Part shown: one piece after another, positions 3,153-63,950 of the stretch
How the letters are laid out: each line of letters starts with the position of its first letter
Numbering within the stretch: position 1 is the first letter of the stretch
Sequence record: MF402939
From: Escherichia phage OSYSP
Strand: one strand, 5' to 3'
Length of the DNA stretch: 64,000 bases
Notes under the pieces: model-generated
What the model saw: only the letters and a program-made list of their open reading frames with translations
Database searches by the model: none
Told to the model about the DNA's origin: nothing
Position numbers and translations under genes: made by a program

Positions 3153-4971
3153 GACACTAAAATTTAGTAACGTTATGTCTTACGGTAAGGACATCGTAAT
3201 TCATTTCGATAAGAATCCAGTTACTCAACTAATCGGTGGCAATGGGCTAGGGAAATCTACTATCGCCACGGTTATAGAAGAGCTGTTCTATAATAAGAAC
3301 TCACGTGGTATTAAGAAAGATGCTCTGTTCTCTTGGTCTTCTCCGAAAAAAGAGTATGATATGCACGCTTACTTCTCAAAAGATGAAGATGAGTATGAAT
3401 TGCATAAAGTAGTTAAATCAACTGCTAAGGTTACACTCATTAAGAATGGAGAAGATATTAGTGGGCATACGGCAACCCAAACATATAAGATGATTGAAGA
3501 AATTATGGGGGGTGACTTTCAAACATTCACCAAACTGATTTATCAATCAGTGGGTTCTAATCTAGACTTCCTAAAAGCAACAGATGCAACACGTAAGGCT
3601 TTTCTTGTTAACTTGTTCAATCAAGAGCAATACAAAGAAATGTCAGAAACTATTAAGGCTGACCGTAAAGAAATAGCAAATACCTTAAATAATTTGCAGG
3701 GCCAGATGGCTGTAATTACGAAAATCCTTAATGGAAAAAATAATCTAGGAACTTTGCAGGAACCTGTAGAGGTGCCGGAGTTTGATGAAGAGCCATTAGC
3801 ACAAGAACTTACTGAATCGAAAATTAAGGCGGCATTAGCCAAGTCTCAAGAGGCTAATATTACTAAGTTGCGTAATTTGGACAAAGCTGTACAAGTTGCC
3901 GAACAATCTTTCGAACCTTTCAAAAATTTGCCCGCGCCCACCGACCAAAGTGAAGAGATCTCGAGTGTTACGCGTGACCTAACGATTGTGACCTCACGTG
4001 CGAGCGAAGTTAAGAAACGTTATCAGAAGTTCAAGCAAGAGGCTTCAAATACTGAATGCCCTACTTGCGGTACTCATCTGGATACAACTGCTGCCCAAAA
4101 AGCAATGGATATGGCTAGAACAGAATATGATCCTCTGTTCAAAGAGAAGCAATCTCTTGAAGCTAAGCTAGAACAGTTGAAGAAAGAACAACTTGAGTAC
4201 GTTGCGTATACTAGAGCAAAGGATGCTTTGGATAAAGCGGTGGTAGCTAGAGACGAGTTCAAAAATTCAATGAGTGATGCTTCTTTTGAAGAACTCAATG
4301 TGCAAATCCTACAGGTGCAAATCCGACAATTAGAACAGGAAATCGCTGATGGCCGCTCTAAGGTTGCAATTGCCAAAGAGCATAATGCAAATGTCGAATT
4401 AGCCAACGCAAAATATAAAGCGAAACTAGAACAGATTGAGAAAGCTGAAGCAGAAATGTCTGAGATTACTTCCAAACTTGATGGAGTAGCCGAAGCTGTA
4501 GCTGATCTTGATATTCTAATTGCTGCTTTGAAAAATCTGGTGGGATATAAACTAGAGCATAGTGTGAAAGTATTCGAAGAATTAATTAATAAATACCTTT
4601 CTATTATGACTGGAGGTAAATTCGCACTTGGATTTGAACTTGATGAAACGAAGTTACAAGTAGTAATCTTCAATGATGGAAATCGTACCAGTATGGAGAA
4701 CTGCTCTACTGGTCAGCAAAGTAGAATTAATCTAGCAACCCTGTTAGCTATTCGTATGCTGTTAACATCTATTAGTAAAGTTAATATTAATCTTCTATTC
4801 CTTGATGAAGTAATTAGCTTTATTGATACGAAAGGACTTGATACTCTCGTTGAACTATTAAATGAGGAAGAAAGTCTAAATTCTATCATTGTTTCTCATG
4901 GGCATACGCATCCATTAGCTCATAAGATTACTGTCAAAAAAGATGCAGAAGGATTTTCCTACTTAGAATAA
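3133..4971 (+). CDS. SbcC/Rad50-like ATPase with coiled coil and zinc hook
   Basis: Start taken at MSKITIK (ATG 3133) rather than the track ATG at 3031; Walker A GGNGLGKST, CPTC hook motif in a long coiled-coil region, signature-like STGQQS, Walker B LLFLDEV. Confidence 0.85.
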   Translation: MSKITIKTLKFSNVMSYGKDIVIHFDKNPVTQLIGGNGLGKSTIATVIEELFYNKNSRGIKKDALFSWSSPKKEYDMHAYFSKDEDEYELHKVVKSTAKVTLIKNGEDISGHTATQTYKMIEEIMGGDFQTFTKLIYQSVGSNLDFLKATDATRKAFLVNLFNQEQYKEMSETIKADRKEIANTLNNLQGQMAVITKILNGKNNLGTLQEPVEVPEFDEEPLAQELTESKIKAALAKSQEANITKLRNLDKAVQVAEQSFEPFKNLPAPTDQSEEISSVTRDLTIVTSRASEVKKRYQKFKQEASNTECPTCGTHLDTTAAQKAMDMARTEYDPLFKEKQSLEAKLEQLKKEQLEYVAYTRAKDALDKAVVARDEFKNSMSDASFEELNVQILQVQIRQLEQEIADGRSKVAIAKEHNANVELANAKYKAKLEQIEKAEAEMSEITSKLDGVAEAVADLDILIAALKNLVGYKLEHSVKVFEELINKYLSIMTGGKFALGFELDETKLQVVIFNDGNRTSMENCSTGQQSRINLATLLAIRMLLTSISKVNINLLFLDEVISFIDTKGLDTLVELLNEEESLNSIIVSHGHTHPLAHKITVKKDAEGFSYLE

Positions 4972-30869: not shown

Positions 30870-32657
30870 TTAGGTAAGGCGTTGAACTGTTACTCTTAAT
30901 CTCGGTAGGAAAATAGCTGCAGCCTCATCAGCGTGAATAATTACGCCCAATTCAGCATTACCATTTCCTAGATTTTTAATAGTATAAATATATCCGTTTC
31001 TTCTAAATGTTAACTCATCAGGTCTACTTGCCCAAGTTTGAGTATAGCTGTATGCAGTAGTGGAGTGATAAGGGACTAAGTATCCAGGAGGTAAGGTTAA
31101 TATTTGATGGAATATTCCATCACCTTCCGTGTAACTATGCTGTCTTCTTCCTTGTACTTGCCAAGCAACACCACCATATGTGCGTATAGCTCCTCCTGCG
31201 GTATTAATATTCCCCATGATAACTTCAGTAGTTAATATTACTGTTGCGTTAGCGTTAGGCAATCCTAATCCTATGGTGGCCAAAGCTCTATAGTAGTTAC
31301 CTGCTCCAGGATATGTTGGAGTTATATCATCGCCAACGTAAGTGCTAGCAACATTATTAGGAAATAGTCTTAAGGGTACAGTACTAGGACTCCACACAGC
31401 TCCATGCTCATTACCTATAGTGTTATTACTTGAGTTTACGTACCATTGCTTACCCGCTCCGAATTTGTAAATACTAATTTGAGACTTAGCCCCTCCATAA
31501 TCTACGGGAGACCATAAAGATCCATTACTAGATCCTACAATTTCACAGCGCGCAGTAGTATCCCCGAAGGCTCCAGTGTACGCTGCGTTATTTCCAATGT
31601 ACTCCATATCTGGCCTATAGCCTAAGTTACCAAAAGCATTTTGGTTGATAAACTTATATCCAGTATTTGGTAAACTAACCCCTTTTATAGTAAAATTAGA
31701 TGGAGTTATAAGTATATCTGACCCAGTAAATGGATTACCGGATACGCCCATATTACCATTAGAGTACCTTAGATTAAGTACATACCAAATAACTTTGGTA
31801 GGTGTAATATTATAACCATCCTGCACATATACTTTCTTAGCGGCCTGTGCTGCTAGATTAGATGTTGAACCTTTACATATATAAACCTTATCAGGGTAAG
31901 TAGGAGATTGGTACAATAAGTTAACATTATCGGGTACTGTGCCTTTTTTACCTACGTAACTTCGTATATTAGAGTTACAAACGTAAAAACAATTATGCCC
32001 TCTATGGGCGGCCCCTATAGGAGCTTGCCAGTTAGGATGCCAGTAGTCAGCATTACCACCGTCTATAGGTACTGTAGACGCTCCCGCTGGAAATCCTGCT
32101 AAAGTCCATGCCCTACCTATAGCCTCACCAGCATATGCTCCTCCCGGCCTATATAAATTAAACCCGGAGGCTTGAGATATAGTACCTCCTGTACCTTGCC
32201 TAGCAATTGATTCTTCATGGCCTAAACCAGAGTTATAAATATAGGTGCCATGTGCTAAACTATTACCTGATGCAAAAGCTGACGTAAGACCTACTTCTGC
32301 ACCTGCCCTACCAATAGGCGGATCTTCAAAAAATGTAGTAAATTGACCAACTTGAGATTGAGTACCATTAAGAAAAGCCCTATGAGTACCATTAATCTCA
32401 ATAGCAGTTAGTATAACTCTACCTGGGTCATTGGATTTAATATTTATTATGTCAGAAGGCATCTGACATACAAAAAACCCATTTCCGGCATTACCTAGCC
32501 CAGCCTCGTAAGTACCATCAACTAGGACAAATGGCATATCACTATGAAAAATACTATTGGCATTTGGACTATAGTGACGATTAATGTCACCCCCAGATTC
32601 AGTATTTAAAGATAGTACGGTCTTACCATCGCTATACTTTCCAGCGAAAAAACCCAT
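30870..32657 (-). CDS. Receptor-binding tail protein (T5 pb5-like)
   Basis: 595 aa; Gly/Asn/Tyr-rich; divergent from and adjacent to a lipoprotein gene exactly as the T5 oad-llp pair. Confidence 0.7.
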
Positions 32658-32742: not shown

Positions 32743-33009
32743 ATGAAAAAGTTTGTGATTGCACTAGTTGCCGCAGTTATGTTGTCTGGTTGTGCACCTG
32801 CCCCCAAACCATTTTGTACGGGATTTGTAAAATCTTTTGGCGGTGCGGGAGAGGAGCATTACGGCCTCAAGGTTCAAAAAGTTCGTATTAAGGGAGATCG
32901 CTTTCCAGTAGTACAGCTCCGTACTAAGTTTGGGTGGTGGGATCTCAGTCAGTTTGACCTTAAATACGGTGATTGTAAATTTAAACTAGAGCAATCTAAC
33001 TACCTGTAA
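32743..33009 (+). CDS. llp: Lytic-conversion lipoprotein Llp-like (receptor-blocking, superinfection exclusion)
   Basis: Signal peptide plus lipobox LSGC; 88 aa; divergent neighbour of the receptor-binding protein gene. Confidence 0.75.
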   Translation: MKKFVIALVAAVMLSGCAPAPKPFCTGFVKSFGGAGEEHYGLKVQKVRIKGDRFPVVQLRTKFGWWDLSQFDLKYGDCKFKLEQSNYL

Positions 33010-54231: not shown

Positions 54232-54645
54232 TTAAACTAGTTCGACATGACCGCCATCATAGGTACCACGTTTTATTTCATCGTGATAATCTCCCGAAGC
54301 ATTCCAATCAGCACCAAAGCGAAGTTTAATGCCTAGTTCTTTACCCGCTTGTTCAAAAGCCTTTTTAACTGCCCAAAATGCTTCTAAATCATTCCAATCA
54401 ATTTTGCCATTAATGTATGGAGCAAAATCAAGGGCATCCCCAGTAATATGCTTGCTTTTACTAGGATCTTTTAAAAATGAAGTACCATTAGCAATATTCT
54501 GGGCACTTTGTGCTACTGTACGAATACCCTGTACGATCGTGAAATCATAAGGAGATAGTTCTAAAGCCCTACGAGCTACTTTTTGTAGTTCGGGCTTAAC
54601 GGTAGCTAATTGTTTTTCACTATTTTTACCAAATTTAAAACTCAT
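54232..54645 (-). CDS. Endolysin, L-alanyl-D-glutamate peptidase type
   Basis: 137 aa as for T5 endolysin; zinc-peptidase-like H...D...H residues (HITGDALDF, HVE); directly downstream of holin. Confidence 0.75.
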   Translation of the reverse strand: MSFKFGKNSEKQLATVKPELQKVARRALELSPYDFTIVQGIRTVAQSAQNIANGTSFLKDPSKSKHITGDALDFAPYINGKIDWNDLEAFWAVKKAFEQAGKELGIKLRFGADWNASGDYHDEIKRGTYDGGHVELV

Positions 54646-55325
54646 ATTGATCTACCTAAAGATCTCTGTTGTGGAGAACAGAGCTTTGCTAAATATTCCT
54701 TGAACTGTTCAGAATCAGCTGTATCTACCGGATTATCTTTCCAAGCAATACCAATGTACCCAGCATAGATATTTTTTAGATTGAAGTATGGACAAGTGTA
54801 TATGTAATTAAAAGTAACGTTTTTAAACGCAGGTATATTTAACCCCATATATTTATTTACTCTTACACTTAAATCCGATGCGTAGTTAAAGCCCTCTAAA
54901 TGACGTCTGTATAATTCAGACGTTTTATTTACCGCTTTATCGGCCAAGTCAGCCCTATCTAATTGCGCATTACTTTCCCATGCAATAATATTGGAATAAT
55001 CATTGATAGCATCTGGTTTATACTTGACTACAAAAACAGCATCTGCACCCGTCTGAGAGAAGAGAACCATGCTCTTTTCCCCCGCCACATTAGGGAAGTT
55101 ATCTATCCTCTGGGTTTGTAAATCCTGTAAAACTGCAGACGTGGAAAAGGTTTTTAAGAATGACATCACTTCACTAGTATTACTAACAAATAAGAAAATA
55201 ATGACAGCAACTAAGATAGTTAGCAGACGTTTAAGAAGCGATGCTGGGTCTTTCGCTTCTTGGAGCAGTACTGTTAATAATTGTAAGAACTTTTCCAATT
55301 TGTAACCTCCTCTAACCAGTACCAT
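54642..55325 (-). CDS. Holin (putative)
   Basis: 227 aa with one strong TM helix LLTILVAVIIFLFV; ATGA overlap with the endolysin gene. Confidence 0.6.
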   Translation of the reverse strand: MVLVRGGYKLEKFLQLLTVLLQEAKDPASLLKRLLTILVAVIIFLFVSNTSEVMSFLKTFSTSAVLQDLQTQRIDNFPNVAGEKSMVLFSQTGADAVFVVKYKPDAINDYSNIIAWESNAQLDRADLADKAVNKTSELYRRHLEGFNYASDLSVRVNKYMGLNIPAFKNVTFNYIYTCPYFNLKNIYAGYIGIAWKDNPVDTADSEQFKEYLAKLCSPQQRSLGRSI

Positions 55326-55555
55326 TATACTAATTTTGGAGGAAAATTACAATGTGTTTTTAAAGATCACTTCTGGAGCATAAAATTTTGTCGTTGTCAA
55401 GAAGAATTTTAGATAAAAGAAAAGCCAGGGTCGTTAAACCCTGGCTTAAAATTACTTACTCTTCGTTGTGCTCCTCGGATTGAGGTAACTGGGCTTTATT
55501 ATATTGCTCAGATCGATATTTTGCCAAGATTTCAATACGCTTATGGATTTCTTTG

Positions 55556-56056
55556 CTATCTAGATAGATATTTTTTGTTGTCTTTTACCATTTCGTCGAT
55601 TTCGTCTATAGAGAAGAACGGATAGTAGACATCTAGCATCATATCTTCTACGAACTTGTTGTAAGATTCATAGGCTTTCTTGATTTCTTGACCCTTCTCA
55701 CAGAATCCGCCAGAGAACGTGTGTCCCATTAGCGTAGCATGTGGATGTACTACCCATCCATGACAGGATAGGAAAATTGTGCAGTAAGCAGAAGCACTAG
55801 GACCGAGCAGGTGTCCAATAACCGTTCCACGACAGTTAGCGATTAAGTTAGATAGTTGTGCAGCAGTATCAACGTAACCACCAGGCCCATTAATCATCAG
55901 ATTAATTTCATCATCTTCACCAGCCTGCATCAGTATCATGGATAGGTCACGATACTCATCCGGTGAGCCTAATTCTTCATCAAAGAAAAAGGTATATTCG
56001 TTAGATTGGCGAACAGTGTGAAACAGGTTAGTCTTTTCTTCTTTCTTATTAGTCAT
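55556..56056 (-). CDS. ClpP-like serine protease (S14 family-like)
   Basis: INGPGG (cf. ClpP INSPGG), GPSASAY (catalytic Ser context), VVHPH (His context). Confidence 0.6.
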   Translation of the reverse strand: MTNKKEEKTNLFHTVRQSNEYTFFFDEELGSPDEYRDLSMILMQAGEDDEINLMINGPGGYVDTAAQLSNLIANCRGTVIGHLLGPSASAYCTIFLSCHGWVVHPHATLMGHTFSGGFCEKGQEIKKAYESYNKFVEDMMLDVYYPFFSIDEIDEMVKDNKKYLSR

Positions 56057-56068
56057 AGTGATCCTTAA

Positions 56069-56821
56069 TTATCCAACTAGTGGTTCTAGCTCTAAGTCAC
56101 AGAAGTGGTACACATCGGTACGAAGTGCATCAAGTCCGTTGAAGGTATTCTCAAATTTATGAGAAATGTATTTTTCAGGAATACCGCTTTCAGACGGATG
56201 ATCTGTCTCGATGCGATACTTATTAGTAATACCAGATTCAACCTTAATAAGCATGGAATCCATATCTAGAGTATTGGTTTCCATGATTAGCTCTCCCTCA
56301 TTGGGGAAACGCACATCGGTAACGATTGCGACGTCTGGGTCGTCTTTATCGATGGATTGCTCCAGAATTATGAGCCAAATGCGTTCATGCACCAGCTGCC
56401 TTCCTAACTCAGTACCTACAAGCTGTAGCATTTTTCTTGGGGAGATAAACACGCTATACAGCGCATCATCAGCTTGCCCAATTAACTGCTGAGGATCAAG
56501 GTATTTTCCTTCAAAAATCGGCCAAACGTACGAGAAGTCCTCAAACTTATCGATACCATACTTAAACCATACGTCTCTAGCTCGCTCCAATTGAGATTGT
56601 GTGACCGTAAACCATTGGTCAATCTCTTTTCCCCTGCGCTCTCCCAGAAACTCTGGAGTTACCCCGAGGATTACGGATGCAAGTTCGTAAACGGGTTTAG
56701 CAAAACTGTAACGACGGGATAAACACGTTGGGAACGTGTCATTACACCAGTCAATCATTAATTCTGCAACGGTATCTTTTCCCGCACCAGCCTCACCATG
56801 TAAACCGACTAATACTGACAT
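56069..56821 (-). CDS. Deoxynucleoside monophosphate kinase
   Basis: 250 aa; P-loop GLHGEAGAGKDT at N-terminus; same size as T5 dNMP kinase. Confidence 0.7.
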   Translation of the reverse strand: MSVLVGLHGEAGAGKDTVAELMIDWCNDTFPTCLSRRYSFAKPVYELASVILGVTPEFLGERRGKEIDQWFTVTQSQLERARDVWFKYGIDKFEDFSYVWPIFEGKYLDPQQLIGQADDALYSVFISPRKMLQLVGTELGRQLVHERIWLIILEQSIDKDDPDVAIVTDVRFPNEGELIMETNTLDMDSMLIKVESGITNKYRIETDHPSESGIPEKYISHKFENTFNGLDALRTDVYHFCDLELEPLVG

Positions 56822-57174
56822 TAATCTTTCCTATTTGTAATGGGTGGATAGTAAACTAAGCAACGTTTTTCTTGTAAATCTTGACGATAGAAGCAAACCA
56901 TACCAGTCAGTCGTGAAATGTAAGAGTAAACTGCTTCCTCGCATTTTGCTTTTGCATTCCAATCTTTGTAAGGTACAACAACTACTACGCCATCTTCGCC
57001 ATTTGTAGCTAATTTCTTTTCGAATTTGAAATCAAAGCTACACGGCTGAAGTCCTTTAGGCCAGTCAACATGGGCTTGCTTTAACTCATGTGAAGGCTCT
57101 GGTTTTATTTCTTCTGCACAGCCTGTGATTGTGATTGCGGCTGCGAGCAGTACTCCAAGTTTCCAGTTAAACAT
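56821..57174 (-). CDS. Outer-membrane lipoprotein, candidate o-spanin
   Basis: Signal peptide with lipobox ITGC; 117 aa; 5' end overlaps a TM/coiled-coil protein gene. Confidence 0.5.
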   Translation of the reverse strand: MFNWKLGVLLAAAITITGCAEEIKPEPSHELKQAHVDWPKGLQPCSFDFKFEKKLATNGEDGVVVVVPYKDWNAKAKCEEAVYSYISRLTGMVCFYRQDLQEKRCLVYYPPITNRKD

Positions 57175-57548
57175 GCTAATCTTTCCTCGAACTCCTTACT
57201 CTGCTTTTTAGCAATTAATGTAACCAATCCAGGCTTTGCAGCTATAATGTCTTGACGACTAAGTGCTTTATCAAGCTGACTAATTTTCTTGTCTAGATCT
57301 GCTTGGGAAACATTATTCATTGTGAAATACTGATTCATACGAGTTTCACGAAGTTCACTCTCAGCTTTCACATTATTAAGGGAAGTCTCTAGGGACGTAA
57401 TCTTTTTAGTAGCTACTGCAAGATCACCTGCTAGAGTCTCAACCTTATTTACTAAGTGATAAGCACCGAATCCGATACCTATCGCAAGACCAGCTCCCAG
57501 GATATACATCTTATTATCCCAAACTAAGTCTACAAACCATTTCCACAT
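57105..57548 (-). CDS. TM plus coiled-coil protein, candidate i-spanin
   Basis: N-terminal TM helix YILGAGLAIGIGFGAY then long coiled coil. Confidence 0.5.
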   Translation of the reverse strand: MWKWFVDLVWDNKMYILGAGLAIGIGFGAYHLVNKVETLAGDLAVATKKITSLETSLNNVKAESELRETRMNQYFTMNNVSQADLDKKISQLDKALSRQDIIAAKPGLVTLIAKKQSKEFEERLACLTGNLEYCSQPQSQSQAVQKK

Positions 57549-58045
57549 CAGCCTGTACTCGCAAACTCACCGTGGAGTTCTTTGAGTTTGGTATCTCGCC
57601 ATTCTATGGCCTCTTCCAAACTCTTAAGTGTTTTCGAAACTTGCTTACCATGTTTAGTGATTCTTACTTGGTAAGTCCCATTTGTTTTTCTATGAATATT
57701 TTTAACGCCTAAATGGTTATCGCTTCTTACTTTTTGATTACAAGCGTTATCAGATCTTGTAGCAGGTCTTAGATTCTCAAACCTATCATTAGTTGAGTCT
57801 TTATCCTTATGATCAACTATTTCTGGCCATTCTCCAGTATGCCATGCATAGATTAATCTATGTGTACCTATAGCTAGAGAACCATTATATAGCTCAACTA
57901 CTCTATGTCCTGTACTTTGTCTAGATCCTGCTACTGTTCCGGCGAATATCTTATTAAAGTGTTCGTCCCCTTCCCTGGGTTTCCAGATAAGATTACCATC
58001 ATCTCGGTAATCGAACATTCTTCTTAGCTCTTCCTTACTGATCAT
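57548..58045 (-). CDS. HNH homing endonuclease with AP2-like DNA-binding domain
   Basis: HRLIYAWHTGEWPEIVDHKD...NLRPATRSDN (HNH core) followed by NGTYQVRITKHGKQV (AP2-like). Confidence 0.65.
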   Translation of the reverse strand: MISKEELRRMFDYRDDGNLIWKPREGDEHFNKIFAGTVAGSRQSTGHRVVELYNGSLAIGTHRLIYAWHTGEWPEIVDHKDKDSTNDRFENLRPATRSDNACNQKVRSDNHLGVKNIHRKTNGTYQVRITKHGKQVSKTLKSLEEAIEWRDTKLKELHGEFASTG

Positions 58046-58740
58046 CTTTTCATATTCCTAAAAGAAGTAACAGTATCAAATCCATGTGCGGCTAAGCGAT
58101 CCTTATCGGAAGTGGTAATAGTATCTGGTTCACCAGTTCCTAATACGCCCCAGATATATTGCTCGATCATCTGGTGTAAACGGTATAAGTTACTTTCAAT
58201 TTCCTGCCACGGAATACCTGACTGATGGAAACGAATGTTAGTCTGAATCACGAAGTTACGAACATCATCGTTATCGTTCTTTTTAATACCTTTCACATAT
58301 GCAATCGGTACACGCAGTTCGGATAAGATACGTTCTGCTTTAGGTTTTGCTTCAGCGAGCAAATCACGCATTGTTTCACGAACATCTCCGCGACTCTTAT
58401 CCATTAAGTAAGAGCGAGCATGCAATCCCATCTCTTCCATTTTATCGAACATAGTGTCGAGGTTGAACGTTTTGAAGCTAAATGCTGGATGCCAGCAGTA
58501 CAGCTCGTGTAACCAGTAAACTTCACCTGCAACAAATAGTGGGTTTACAAAATATTCGAAATCACCACGGAAAGATAGCGAACCATCACGAAATACCTGA
58601 CGACTATGCACGATGTTCTTTTCTGCATCATCAGTTACTTTAACCAGTAGCTCTTCAGTTTTACGCTCCCAAACACGATCTGCATCAAATAAACTGTTCT
58701 GCAAATCATATACATCGGCGAATTTAGAAATGATCCTCAT
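58042..58740 (-). CDS. Hypothetical early protein (232 aa)
   Basis: ORF in early array. Confidence 0.5.
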   Translation of the reverse strand: MRIISKFADVYDLQNSLFDADRVWERKTEELLVKVTDDAEKNIVHSRQVFRDGSLSFRGDFEYFVNPLFVAGEVYWLHELYCWHPAFSFKTFNLDTMFDKMEEMGLHARSYLMDKSRGDVRETMRDLLAEAKPKAERILSELRVPIAYVKGIKKNDNDDVRNFVIQTNIRFHQSGIPWQEIESNLYRLHQMIEQYIWGVLGTGEPDTITTSDKDRLAAHGFDTVTSFRNMKR

Positions 58741-58894
58741 ATTTAATCCTCTTGCCTCAATCTATAAACATATTATACAAAAGTTTGGGCATCTAAGCAA
58801 CTAAAATTTTATTATAAAAATAGCCCAGTCGCAAAAGTGCAGGCTGGGCTTTGTCATTATTTGCTTTTGCTAGTAAGCTGACTTAGTGTCAATC

Positions 58895-62457: not shown

Positions 62458-62534
62458 TGGTAGTTAGTAGTGGATTTGAACCACTGTAGTCGCTCCGTAT
62501 GAAGGAGGTGCATAACCACTCTGCCAACTAACTA
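62458..62534 (-). tRNA. tRNA, anticodon CAU (Met or Ile2)
   Basis: 7-bp acceptor stem TAGTTAG/CTAACTA, T-loop GGTTCAAATCC, anticodon loop TTCATAC, encoded CCA. Confidence 0.75.
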
Positions 62535-62629
62535 TTATGTTTTACTAAGCTAAGTAAGTATTCTTTATACTCTTTAGACCAATTAGCTTTTTTAAACTTT
62601 CCTGGACGCATAGTCTTAATTCCTAGATT

Positions 62630-62707
62630 TGGTACTCCGGGAGGGATTTAAACCCCCGATCTCTCGGTTATCAGCCGAGTGCTTTAGATCGCTAAGCTAC
62701 CGAAGCA
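62630..62707 (-). tRNA. tRNA-Ile (anticodon GAU)
   Basis: Anticodon stem-loop CTCGG-CTGATAA-CCGAG, T-loop GGGTTTAAATCCC, 3' CCA. Confidence 0.7.
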
Positions 62708-62914
62708 TTAACATTTTACAGCAGAACGTTTGCCATTTCTAGGTGCACCTGGAAGTCGTGCACGTTCTGCCATTCTTCGCTTAATCTTTGAAATATTTTC
62801 TAGTGTTTGTTCTTCAGGCTTAATACCTGAAACACTACACCACTGATTACCATCCCATGCGGTAATGATCATAACACCATTACTCATGATCTTTTCTGTG
62901 AAAGTAATCCTCAT
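62708..62914 (-). CDS. Hypothetical small protein between tRNA genes
   Basis: Start moved to MRITFTE to abut the upstream stop; the track ORF extends to 62935. Confidence 0.35.
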   Translation of the reverse strand: MRITFTEKIMSNGVMIITAWDGNQWCSVSGIKPEEQTLENISKIKRRMAERARLPGAPRNGKRSAVKC

Positions 62915-63207
62915 TATAGCAACTCGTCTAAGCAAGAGGTATATTTAAGTTTACCATCTTTATCTACTTTAATTTCAACTTCCGCTCGTGGTACTTGACG
63001 AACTACACCATGAATCATCTTATAGTTAATAGACTTAGACGGTTCATAATCTTTTGGGAAGACTTGCTTAACCGTTACTACCTTGTACCCATCACGCGGT
63101 GTTAACACAACAACTTGATCACCTTCTTTGATTTTCCAAGAGTTAGGAAATTCATAGGTATAGCGTTGACCACCCGTTTGGAATATAACAGAAAGATAAC
63201 GTTTCAT
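62914..63207 (-). CDS. Hypothetical small protein between tRNA genes (97 aa)
   Basis: ORF in tRNA cluster. Confidence 0.4.
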   Translation of the reverse strand: MKRYLSVIFQTGGQRYTYEFPNSWKIKEGDQVVVLTPRDGYKVVTVKQVFPKDYEPSKSINYKMIHGVVRQVPRAEVEIKVDKDGKLKYTSCLDELL

Positions 63208-63280
63208 TTGGTTTCCCTCTCATTAATTTATATAAATATTATAGCAATAAATAAGAGAGAAAGCAAATGAATTTTTAAAT

Positions 63281-63355
63281 TTGGTGCTCCCACCAGGAAT
63301 CGAACCCGGTTCAGATGCTTACAAGGCAACTGCATCGCCAGCAATGCTTTAGGAG
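63281..63355 (-). tRNA. tRNA, probably Thr (anticodon UGU, tentative)
   Basis: Acceptor stem GCTCCTA/TGGGAGC, T-arm CCGGG-TTCGATT-CCTGG, anticodon loop CTTGTAA, 3' CCA. Confidence 0.65.
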
Positions 63356-63523
63356 CGATAATCCCGTTATTTCAACGGGATTTCTTTTTCAAATACAGGG
63401 GATTTATCTGACATTACTGTCATTGCCAACTGCTGAAGAAACTCGAAAGTAAAGGCAACACGTTCTTCACCAATCTCTACTTCTACACGTTTCTTTTGTT
63501 TATCAATCTTTACTTTTAGGTTG

Positions 63524-63775
63524 TCAGCCATTAGAGGGTACAGTACTGGTAGTTGGCAATACTACAGATGGAGCAACAGTGTTTAAATGCTTTCTCCAGT
63601 CTAGGTTAAATTGTTTTCGAAACTCTTCATAAGGTTCTTCTGGATAAAAGCTAAAACCTCCTTTCTCATCATTCAAGATAACAGAGCCGTCAGTTTGTTC
63701 ATATGCTCGATATGTTTCTCCAATAATGATAACTCGCTTATCAGTACTTTTATTACGAAACTCAAAAACGTGCAT
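63524..63775 (-). CDS. Hypothetical small protein between tRNA genes (83 aa)
   Basis: ORF in tRNA cluster. Confidence 0.4.
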   Translation of the reverse strand: MHVFEFRNKSTDKRVIIIGETYRAYEQTDGSVILNDEKGGFSFYPEEPYEEFRKQFNLDWRKHLNTVAPSVVLPTTSTVPSNG

Positions 63776-63791
63776 AGTGTTTCCTTAAAGT

Positions 63792-63867
63792 TGGAGCGGC
63801 TAGAGGGAATCGAACCCTACTCAGCGAGGCTTGGAAGGCCTGCGACACAACCCGTGTGCTTAACCGC
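63792..63867 (-). tRNA. tRNA, probably Gly (anticodon UCC, tentative)
   Basis: Acceptor stem GCGGTTA/TAGCCGC, T-loop GGTTCGATTCC, anticodon loop CTTCCAA. Confidence 0.6.
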
Positions 63868-63874
63868 GATTATT

Positions 63875-63950
63875 TGGCTGGAGAAGGAGGAATCGAACCT
63901 ACCATTAACGGAGTCAAAGGCCGTTGTGCTAACCATTACACTACTCTCCA
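63875..63950 (-). tRNA. tRNA, probably Gln (anticodon UUG, tentative)
   Basis: Acceptor stem TGGAGAG/TTCTCCA, T-loop GGTTCGATTCC, anticodon loop CTTTGAC, 3' CCA. Confidence 0.6.

Follow-up and report, generated by a model that had tools for sequence, protein, structure and literature searches.

The two overlapping genes at 56821-57548 of Escherichia phage OSYSP very probably encode a T5-family two-component spanin, a branch of the type represented by PseT.3/PseT.2 of phage T4, as judged from their sequences. By analogy, the pair most likely serves to rupture the outer membrane of the host as the infection ends. The window, i.e. the whole stretch of 64,000 nucleotides analysed here (record MF402939), belongs to a T5-like phage of the Demerecviridae. 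The pair is an ordinary and already known one: T5-family spanins were catalogued in 2018 and are annotated in many T5-like genomes. The original prediction had read the two genes as an i-spanin followed by an o-spanin, and this reading is supported by the PHROG families of both proteins, by homology to the T4 and T5 pairs, and by the 'T5 family' of two-component spanins, with genes overlapping by 70 bp, described by Kongari et al. 2018 (PMC6139136).

Both ORFs predicted for 56821-57548 were recovered there on the minus strand, and they overlap by 70 nt. The genes and the elements that join them are the following.

57105-57548, minus strand: putative i-spanin gene, 147 aa; T5.045 orthologue and PseT.3 homologue (from the ORF, PHROG 739 and BLASTP)
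56821-57174, minus strand: putative o-spanin gene, 117-aa precursor and 98-aa mature lipoprotein; T5.044 orthologue and PseT.2 homologue
57105-57174, minus strand: overlap of the two genes, 70 nt ('overlapped' architecture)
57181-57188, minus strand: Shine-Dalgarno-like GAGGAAAG, 6 nt 5' of the o-spanin ATG and within the i-spanin gene (read from the sequence)

The gene order is that of spanins, with the i-spanin gene first and the o-spanin gene overlapping it. The o-spanin frame is offset by one base (+1) relative to the i-spanin frame, and the o-spanin ATG consists of bases that also belong to i-spanin codons 125-126. At the outer ends of the pair, the i-spanin ATG has one base in common with the stop TGA of the HNH gene 5' of it (TGATG), and the o-spanin TAA has one base in common with the ATG of dnk (TAATG).

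The surrounding genes and predicted transcription signals are listed from the promoter of the spanin operon onwards.

about 58772-58834, minus strand: promoter-like region 5' of the spanin operon (consensus scan); the T5 record has a promoter at the equivalent place
58042-58740, minus strand: unnamed ORF, first gene of the spanin operon
57548-58045, minus strand: HNH endonuclease gene
56069-56821, minus strand: dNMP kinase gene (dnk)
55556-56056, minus strand: ClpP-like gene
55422-55447, minus strand: terminator-like hairpin (11 pairs and a T run) that ends the spanin operon; an equivalent terminator is present in the T5 record
55324-55352, minus strand: holin-endolysin promoter (consensus scan)
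54642-55298, minus strand: T-type holin gene, with its most likely start (Pfam Phage_holin_T, 1.5e-111)
54232-54645, minus strand: M15 peptidase endolysin gene (PHROG 465 endolysin, 2.2e-54)

Holin and endolysin, the lysis partners of spanins, are encoded in the same genome. According to the predicted promoters and terminator, the spanin operon and the holin-endolysin unit are transcribed separately, a point against the spanin reading. The distance of about 1.5 kb between the pair and the holin-endolysin cassette, with the ClpP-like and dNMP kinase genes in between, was as first described. The cassette itself had been placed at 54232-55325; both of its genes were confirmed, but TTG 55298 is the most likely start of the holin, in place of ATG 55325.

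OSY-STA, a Salmonella phage (Epseptimavirus, Demerecviridae), matched positions 56000-58100 with 100% identity, and T5 matched them with 89%; over 20 kb the best identity to any record was at most about 94%. A three-way alignment showed an essentially perfect match to OSY-STA at about 55.8-58.24 kb, whereas 53.2-54.5 kb was 96-99% T5-like and only 60-83% OSY-STA-like. Since identity switches from region to region in this way, the window represents a mosaic T5-like phage.

The pattern of sequence variation indicates that both frames are translated. In an alignment of the 728-nt region from 25 distinct T5-like sequences, variable sites at codon positions one, two and three numbered 29, 16 and 72 in the part belonging to the i-spanin gene only, and 15, 10 and 49 in the part belonging to the o-spanin gene only. 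For each gene, this third-position bias appears in the proposed frame alone. Hence both ORFs are real genes, and purifying selection acts on them. The overlap was no more variable (0.24) than the rest (0.31 and 0.26). The locus of GE_vB_N8, a record labelled 'UNVERIFIED', was left out, as it is riddled with frameshifts. This conservation pattern refutes the proposal that one or both ORFs are chance frames and the overlapping lipoprotein frame an artefact, to which we attach next to no probability. Such a proposal could draw on the RefSeq record of OSY-STA, called an identical phage, from which the o-spanin CDS is missing, and on the small number of gene-call-based database entries (5 matches). 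Missing annotations, however, fit the bias of gene callers against overlapping genes (PMC6139136). In addition, the o-spanin frame is preceded by the Shine-Dalgarno site, was found by tblastn in 553 phage records and has T4-like homologues.

Two features of the putative i-spanin are relevant to its assignment.

57450-57506, minus strand: single N-terminal hydrophobic (transmembrane) segment YILGAGLAIGIGFGAYHLV, codons 15-33, kept in 17 homologues
57147-57173, minus strand: C-terminal C-x7-C motif (CLTGNLEYC), codons 126-134

The 19-residue Kyte-Doolittle mean of the hydrophobic segment reaches its maximum, 1.55, at residue 15; the value is slightly below the classic cut-off of 1.6, owing to the high Gly and Ala content of this stretch. 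K13 precedes this stretch, and the protein contains no second one. By analogy, we infer an N-in/C-out (type II) orientation. The N-terminal transmembrane helix claimed for this protein is thus present as one segment, residues 15-33, but the long coiled coil claimed alongside it stands only in part. A home-made heptad heuristic scored positive in windows starting at residues 27-47, i.e. covering about 27-75, and a short second run of hydrophobic residues at 3-4 spacing was seen, by inspection only, at residues 85-96. The coiled-coil matches of the protein in the PDB were non-significant (E 0.03-1). The periplasmic part is probably helical with one clear heptad stretch, for which 'long coiled coil' is a somewhat generous term. 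Candidate relationships to other proteins were rejected: non-significant matches to HA2, SAS-6 and occludin reflect coiled-coil composition only, and a weak match to FtsL (22 bits, with the cut-off at 50) reflects only the transmembrane segment and coiled-coil composition.

The residues invariant in 17 i-spanin homologues are R98, the block AAKPGLVT-x-IAKKQ (103-116), E121, A125, C126, G129 and C134, and the two cysteines are kept even where the spanin genes are separated. The C-terminal motif AC-x-TG-x4-C, to which both belong, is also present in three distant relatives (loci L037, L038 and L057) and is absent from T4-likes.

The downstream gene had been described as encoding a lipoprotein with the lipobox ITGC and several cysteines. 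This description holds, with a lipobox match at C19 and four further cysteines (C45, C78, C94 and C105).

57118-57174, minus strand: predicted signal peptidase II signal peptide, residues 1-19; lipobox I-T-G-C19, with Ala20 at +2
56860-56895, minus strand: C-F-Y-R-Q-D-L-Q-E-K-R-C, codons 94-105; both cysteines align with C87 and C98 of T4 PseT.2

The N-terminus consists of MFNWKLGVLLAAAITITG followed by C19. It carries K5 in the n-region and satisfies a PROSITE-style lipobox rule (LLAAAITITG before C19). With Ala at +2, the protein lacks the Asp inner-membrane retention signal. The mature part, 98 aa long, contains 7 Pro. We compared 49 o-spanin homologues, comprising T5-like, Klebsiella T5-like, T4-like and metagenomic sequences; C19, W38, P39, C94, Y96, R97, L100, E102 and C105 were invariant in all of them.

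T5-like phages encode small outer-membrane lipoproteins that mask receptors or exclude superinfecting phages (Decker et al. 1994, cited in PMC4342426). The lipoprotein might accordingly be a receptor-masking or superinfection-exclusion protein like T5 Llp or Cor, next to an upstream membrane protein unrelated to lysis, and the position of the gene in an early operon outside the holin-endolysin unit would agree with this. We nevertheless regard this alternative as very improbable. Of 869 start/ORF combinations with 50 aa or more, counted over the six frames of the whole window, 5 matched the lipobox rule, and only two of these five combine an ATG start with a canonical signal peptide: the o-spanin ORF and the ORF at 32743-33009. 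The latter encodes an exclusion lipoprotein of the Cor/Llp type (PHROG 1119, the Cor family, 1.8e-26), so that the exclusion role is already filled by a separate gene. The o-spanin candidate matched PHROG 812 only and no Cor or Llp family, and it is homologous to T4 PseT.2, whose spanin activity is proven (PMC6139136). The lipoprotein gene is also consistently paired with a membrane-protein gene. An i-spanin gene was found in 55 of 56 viral loci, and in all 55 it stands immediately 5' of the lipoprotein gene; at the remaining locus (L037), tblastn retrieved no i-spanin, but that place is taken by an ORF with matching features.

Spanin-specific profile searches, named in the original prediction as a check on the pair, placed both proteins in 'Rz-like spanin' families: the i-spanin candidate matched PHROG 739 (1.2e-37) and the o-spanin candidate PHROG 812 (4.2e-30). 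PseT.3 and PseT.2, taken from the T4 RefSeq record, matched the same two families (1.3e-37 and 5e-42, respectively). BLASTP aligned the i-spanin candidate directly with PseT.3 (29% identity, E 6e-7) and the o-spanin candidate with PseT.2 (29% identity, E 2e-7). These T4 alignments span the lipobox, the A-x-KPGLV motif and the C-terminal C-x-Y-R-Q-[DE]-L-x-E-x-x-C motif with both of its cysteines. Scans of both proteins against Pfam and NCBIfam gave nothing significant. Precomputed Pfam annotation assigns PF26831 to all 49 o-spanin homologues, including those 85-98% identical to the protein studied here and the T4-like o-spanins, and this entry was possibly absent from the Pfam copy that we scanned. 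The T5 proteins T5.045 and T5.044, with 96% and 91% identity to the pair, are annotated 'Rz-like spanin' in RefSeq; the original notes of the T5 record already cite T4 PseT.2 and P39504 entries. As a side observation on annotation, other records carry the o-spanin CDS in shortened form or under a wrong label.

Structure prediction for the o-spanin depended on alignment depth. An AlphaFold2 (AF2) model built from only 6 aligned sequences reached a pLDDT of 46 and was unsuitable. With the 49-sequence alignment the mean pLDDT was 80, with values of about 90 across residues 35-110. The resulting model contains a beta-hairpin (50-55 and 61-66) and, after it, a long helix (69-96), an arrangement broadly similar to the beta-alpha organisation described for PseT.2 (PMC6139136). 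Foldseek searches of BFVD retrieved T5-like and T4-like models named o-spanin, Rz1 or PseT.2, with E values ranging from 5e-4 to 9e-6. Individual matches include a Providencia phage 'o-spanin' (9e-6), the 'Rz1' of Sf25 (5e-4) and the 'PseT.2' of Acinetobacter phage 133 (8e-4). Against the PDB, Foldseek gave no meaningful match for the o-spanin model (best E 2.6), and sequence-profile searches with both proteins retrieved no resembling solved structure.

The architecture of the pair varies among its relatives. The overlap is 70 nt in 24 of 27 T5-like loci, 88 nt in Klebsiella T5-likes, 13-16 nt in the distant relatives with the AC-x-TG-x4-C motif and 4 nt in T4-likes. A homing-endonuclease gene lies between the spanin genes of Shivani and phiR201 (PMC6139136), and in three loci of our set (L030-L032) an endonuclease insert parts the two genes by a 666-nt gap.

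The steps by which the pair might act are taken from the spanin model for lambda Rz/Rz1 and T4 PseT.3/PseT.2 (PMC6139136). The 147-aa protein would span the inner membrane in an N-in/C-out orientation. The lipoprotein, 98 aa when mature, would be lipidated on C19 and carried by the Lol system to the outer membrane, where it would reside in the inner leaflet. In the periplasm, the C-terminal regions of both proteins would then bind each other, forming complexes threaded through the peptidoglycan mesh, and disulfides may tie the subunits into (homo)dimers, with o-spanin C94/C105 and, in the T5 family, also i-spanin C126/C134 as candidates. Expressed from an early operon shared with dnk, such complexes could build up harmlessly. 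Once the T-type holin has triggered and the peptidoglycan has been cleared away by the M15 endolysin, they would be free to change conformation and would fuse the inner and outer membranes, so that the last barrier to virion release would be gone.

The T4 genes pseT.3 and pseT.2 complement lambda Rz-am Rz1-am, and C87 and C98 of PseT.2 are both essential (PMC6139136). Our literature search turned up no experiment done directly on T5-family spanins, and the assignment of spanin function to the pair therefore rests on homology (about 29% identity to the T4 proteins that have been tested) and on anatomy. This negative search would also be compatible with a spanin homologue that has no activity in this phage or that the phage can do without, the outer membrane being disrupted otherwise, e.g. 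by shear or by another protein. In work on lambda, shaking of laboratory cultures hides spanin defects, which likewise counts in favour of dispensability. Against this stand the strong purifying selection on both genes in 25 genomes, the invariance of the functional residues, and the fact that both genes remain intact even where a homing-endonuclease insert parts them (L030-L032; PMC6139136). We consider a dispensable or inactive pair improbable and retain the active two-component spanin as the preferred reading.

Both proteins carry periplasmic cysteines, C126 and C134 in the i-spanin and four in the o-spanin, which are conserved within the T5-like branch. Their numbers differ between branches: T5-likes have two in the i-spanin and four in the o-spanin, whereas T4-likes have none and two, respectively. 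Because the i-spanin motif AC-x-TG-x4-C is conserved, and because an extra o-spanin pair (C45/C78) occurs beside the T4-type pair, the disulfide scheme of the T5 branch might differ from those of both lambda and T4, although we think this unlikely. If it did, a covalent link between i- and o-spanin (heterotypic) or a redox-controlled activation step could be envisaged, neither of which has been described for spanins.

The practical value of these results lies in annotation, since overlapping genes fall in a blind spot of gene callers. For T5-group phage-therapy candidates, the complete lysis set of holin, endolysin, i-spanin and o-spanin can be recorded. The conserved cysteine patterns offer a modest lead on how spanin disulfide schemes differ.

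Among known systems, lambda Rz/Rz1 shares with the pair the functional class, the topology plan (a type II inner-membrane protein and an outer-membrane lipoprotein) and the presence of periplasmic cysteines. No sequence similarity to the lambda proteins is detectable (no Pfam match at E 0.1 or better). Lambda Rz1 is wholly embedded in Rz, unstructured and proline-rich, with a mature part of 40 aa (PMC6139136), whereas here the o-spanin gene is overlapped and its 98-aa mature product has a predicted folded core. P2 LysB/LysC likewise lacks significant similarity to the pair, and the NCBIfam model phage_LysB did not match the protein from the window; the P2 pair belongs to the same 'overlapped' class (PMC6139136), in which the o-spanin gene starts within the i-spanin gene and extends past it.

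T4 PseT.3/PseT.2 is closer. It shares PHROG 739 and 812, the KPGLV motif of the i-spanin and the C-x-Y-R-x-x-L-x-E-x-x-C motif of the o-spanin, and its spanin genes also lie away from those of holin and endolysin (t and e; PMC6139136). Unlike the pair described here, the T4 genes overlap by 4 nt only ('separated' class), the T4 i-spanin has neither cysteines nor the C-terminal AC-x-TG-x4-C extension, and the T4 o-spanin is about 18 residues shorter, with two periplasmic cysteines as opposed to four. The 70-nt overlap and the two i-spanin cysteines thus place the pair in the T5 branch and not in the T4 branch.

The closest system is T5.045/T5.044 of phage T5 itself. Differences at this level are limited to point substitutions, with a DNA block that is here identical to OSY-STA rather than to T5. 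The T5 pair has the same lengths (147 and 117 aa), the same 70-nt overlap and the same cysteine pattern, and it is set among the same neighbours, a hegF-type HNH gene 5' and the dnk and ClpP-like genes 3'.

The spanin genes lie in a mosaic part of the window. In a block at about 55800-58240, the window and Salmonella phage OSY-STA are essentially identical. The flanks contrast with this block: between 53.2 and 54.5 kb the window is 96-99% T5-like but only 60-83% OSY-STA-like. Because an HNH homing-endonuclease gene (57548-58045) lies inside the block, it may represent a homing co-conversion tract that brought the spanin genes along.

Downstream of the spanin genes, sequence comparison with T5 and OSY-STA revealed a frameshift in the ClpP-like gene.

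55456-56056, minus strand: ClpP-like gene region, frameshift site around 55566-55572

The homopolymer run reads AACAAAAAAT in the window and AAC-AAAAAT in both T5 and OSY-STA; the one additional A causes the ORF to stop at 55556, giving 166 aa rather than 199 aa. The next frame still encodes an intact T5-like C-terminus. A sequencing error in the homopolymer or a recent mutation could account for the extra base; programmed slippage could too, but is less likely.

55298-55352, minus strand: holin promoter/start region, -10 box TATAATG, TTG at 55298

The original prediction started the holin at ATG 55325, a codon that falls within the -10 box of the holin promoter. The true start is likely TTG 55298, which is preceded by GAGGAGG and yields a protein of 218 aa, equal to the T5 annotation.

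A second lipoprotein gene and a tRNA cluster were also found in the window.

30870-32657, minus strand: 595-aa ORF, adjoining the lipoprotein gene in divergent orientation
32743-33009, plus strand: second lipoprotein gene, 88 aa, lipobox LSGC, PHROG 1119
62458-63950, minus strand: four-gene tRNA cluster (Met-CAT, Ile-GAT, Thr-TGT, Gln-TTG)

The lipoprotein scores 1.8e-26 against PHROG 1119, the Cor/Llp superinfection-exclusion family, and the neighbouring ORF might, judging by its position, encode the receptor-binding protein. A T5-like phage would be expected to carry such a cluster in its tRNA region.

Spanin annotation in public records has gaps. The OSY-STA RefSeq record (L002) carries no o-spanin CDS, the locus being at 3822-4106, and in Klebsiella phage vB_Kpn_K7_rec7 (L005) the o-spanin is annotated short, at 2675-2830 instead of 2501-2830. 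Many records name the o-spanin region 'i-spanin' or 'hypothetical'.

Among related phages, the arrangement of the two genes varies. In three T5-like loci (L030, L031 and L032), a 666-nt insert splits them; in Shivani and phiR201, a GIY-YIG endonuclease gene occupies that position (Kongari et al. 2018, PMC6139136). Three distant relatives (L037, L038 and L057) have overlaps of 13-16 nt and keep the C-terminal C-x-TG-x4-C motif of the i-spanin. In L057, a ClpP-like gene directly follows the o-spanin gene, an arrangement that echoes the gene order of T5.
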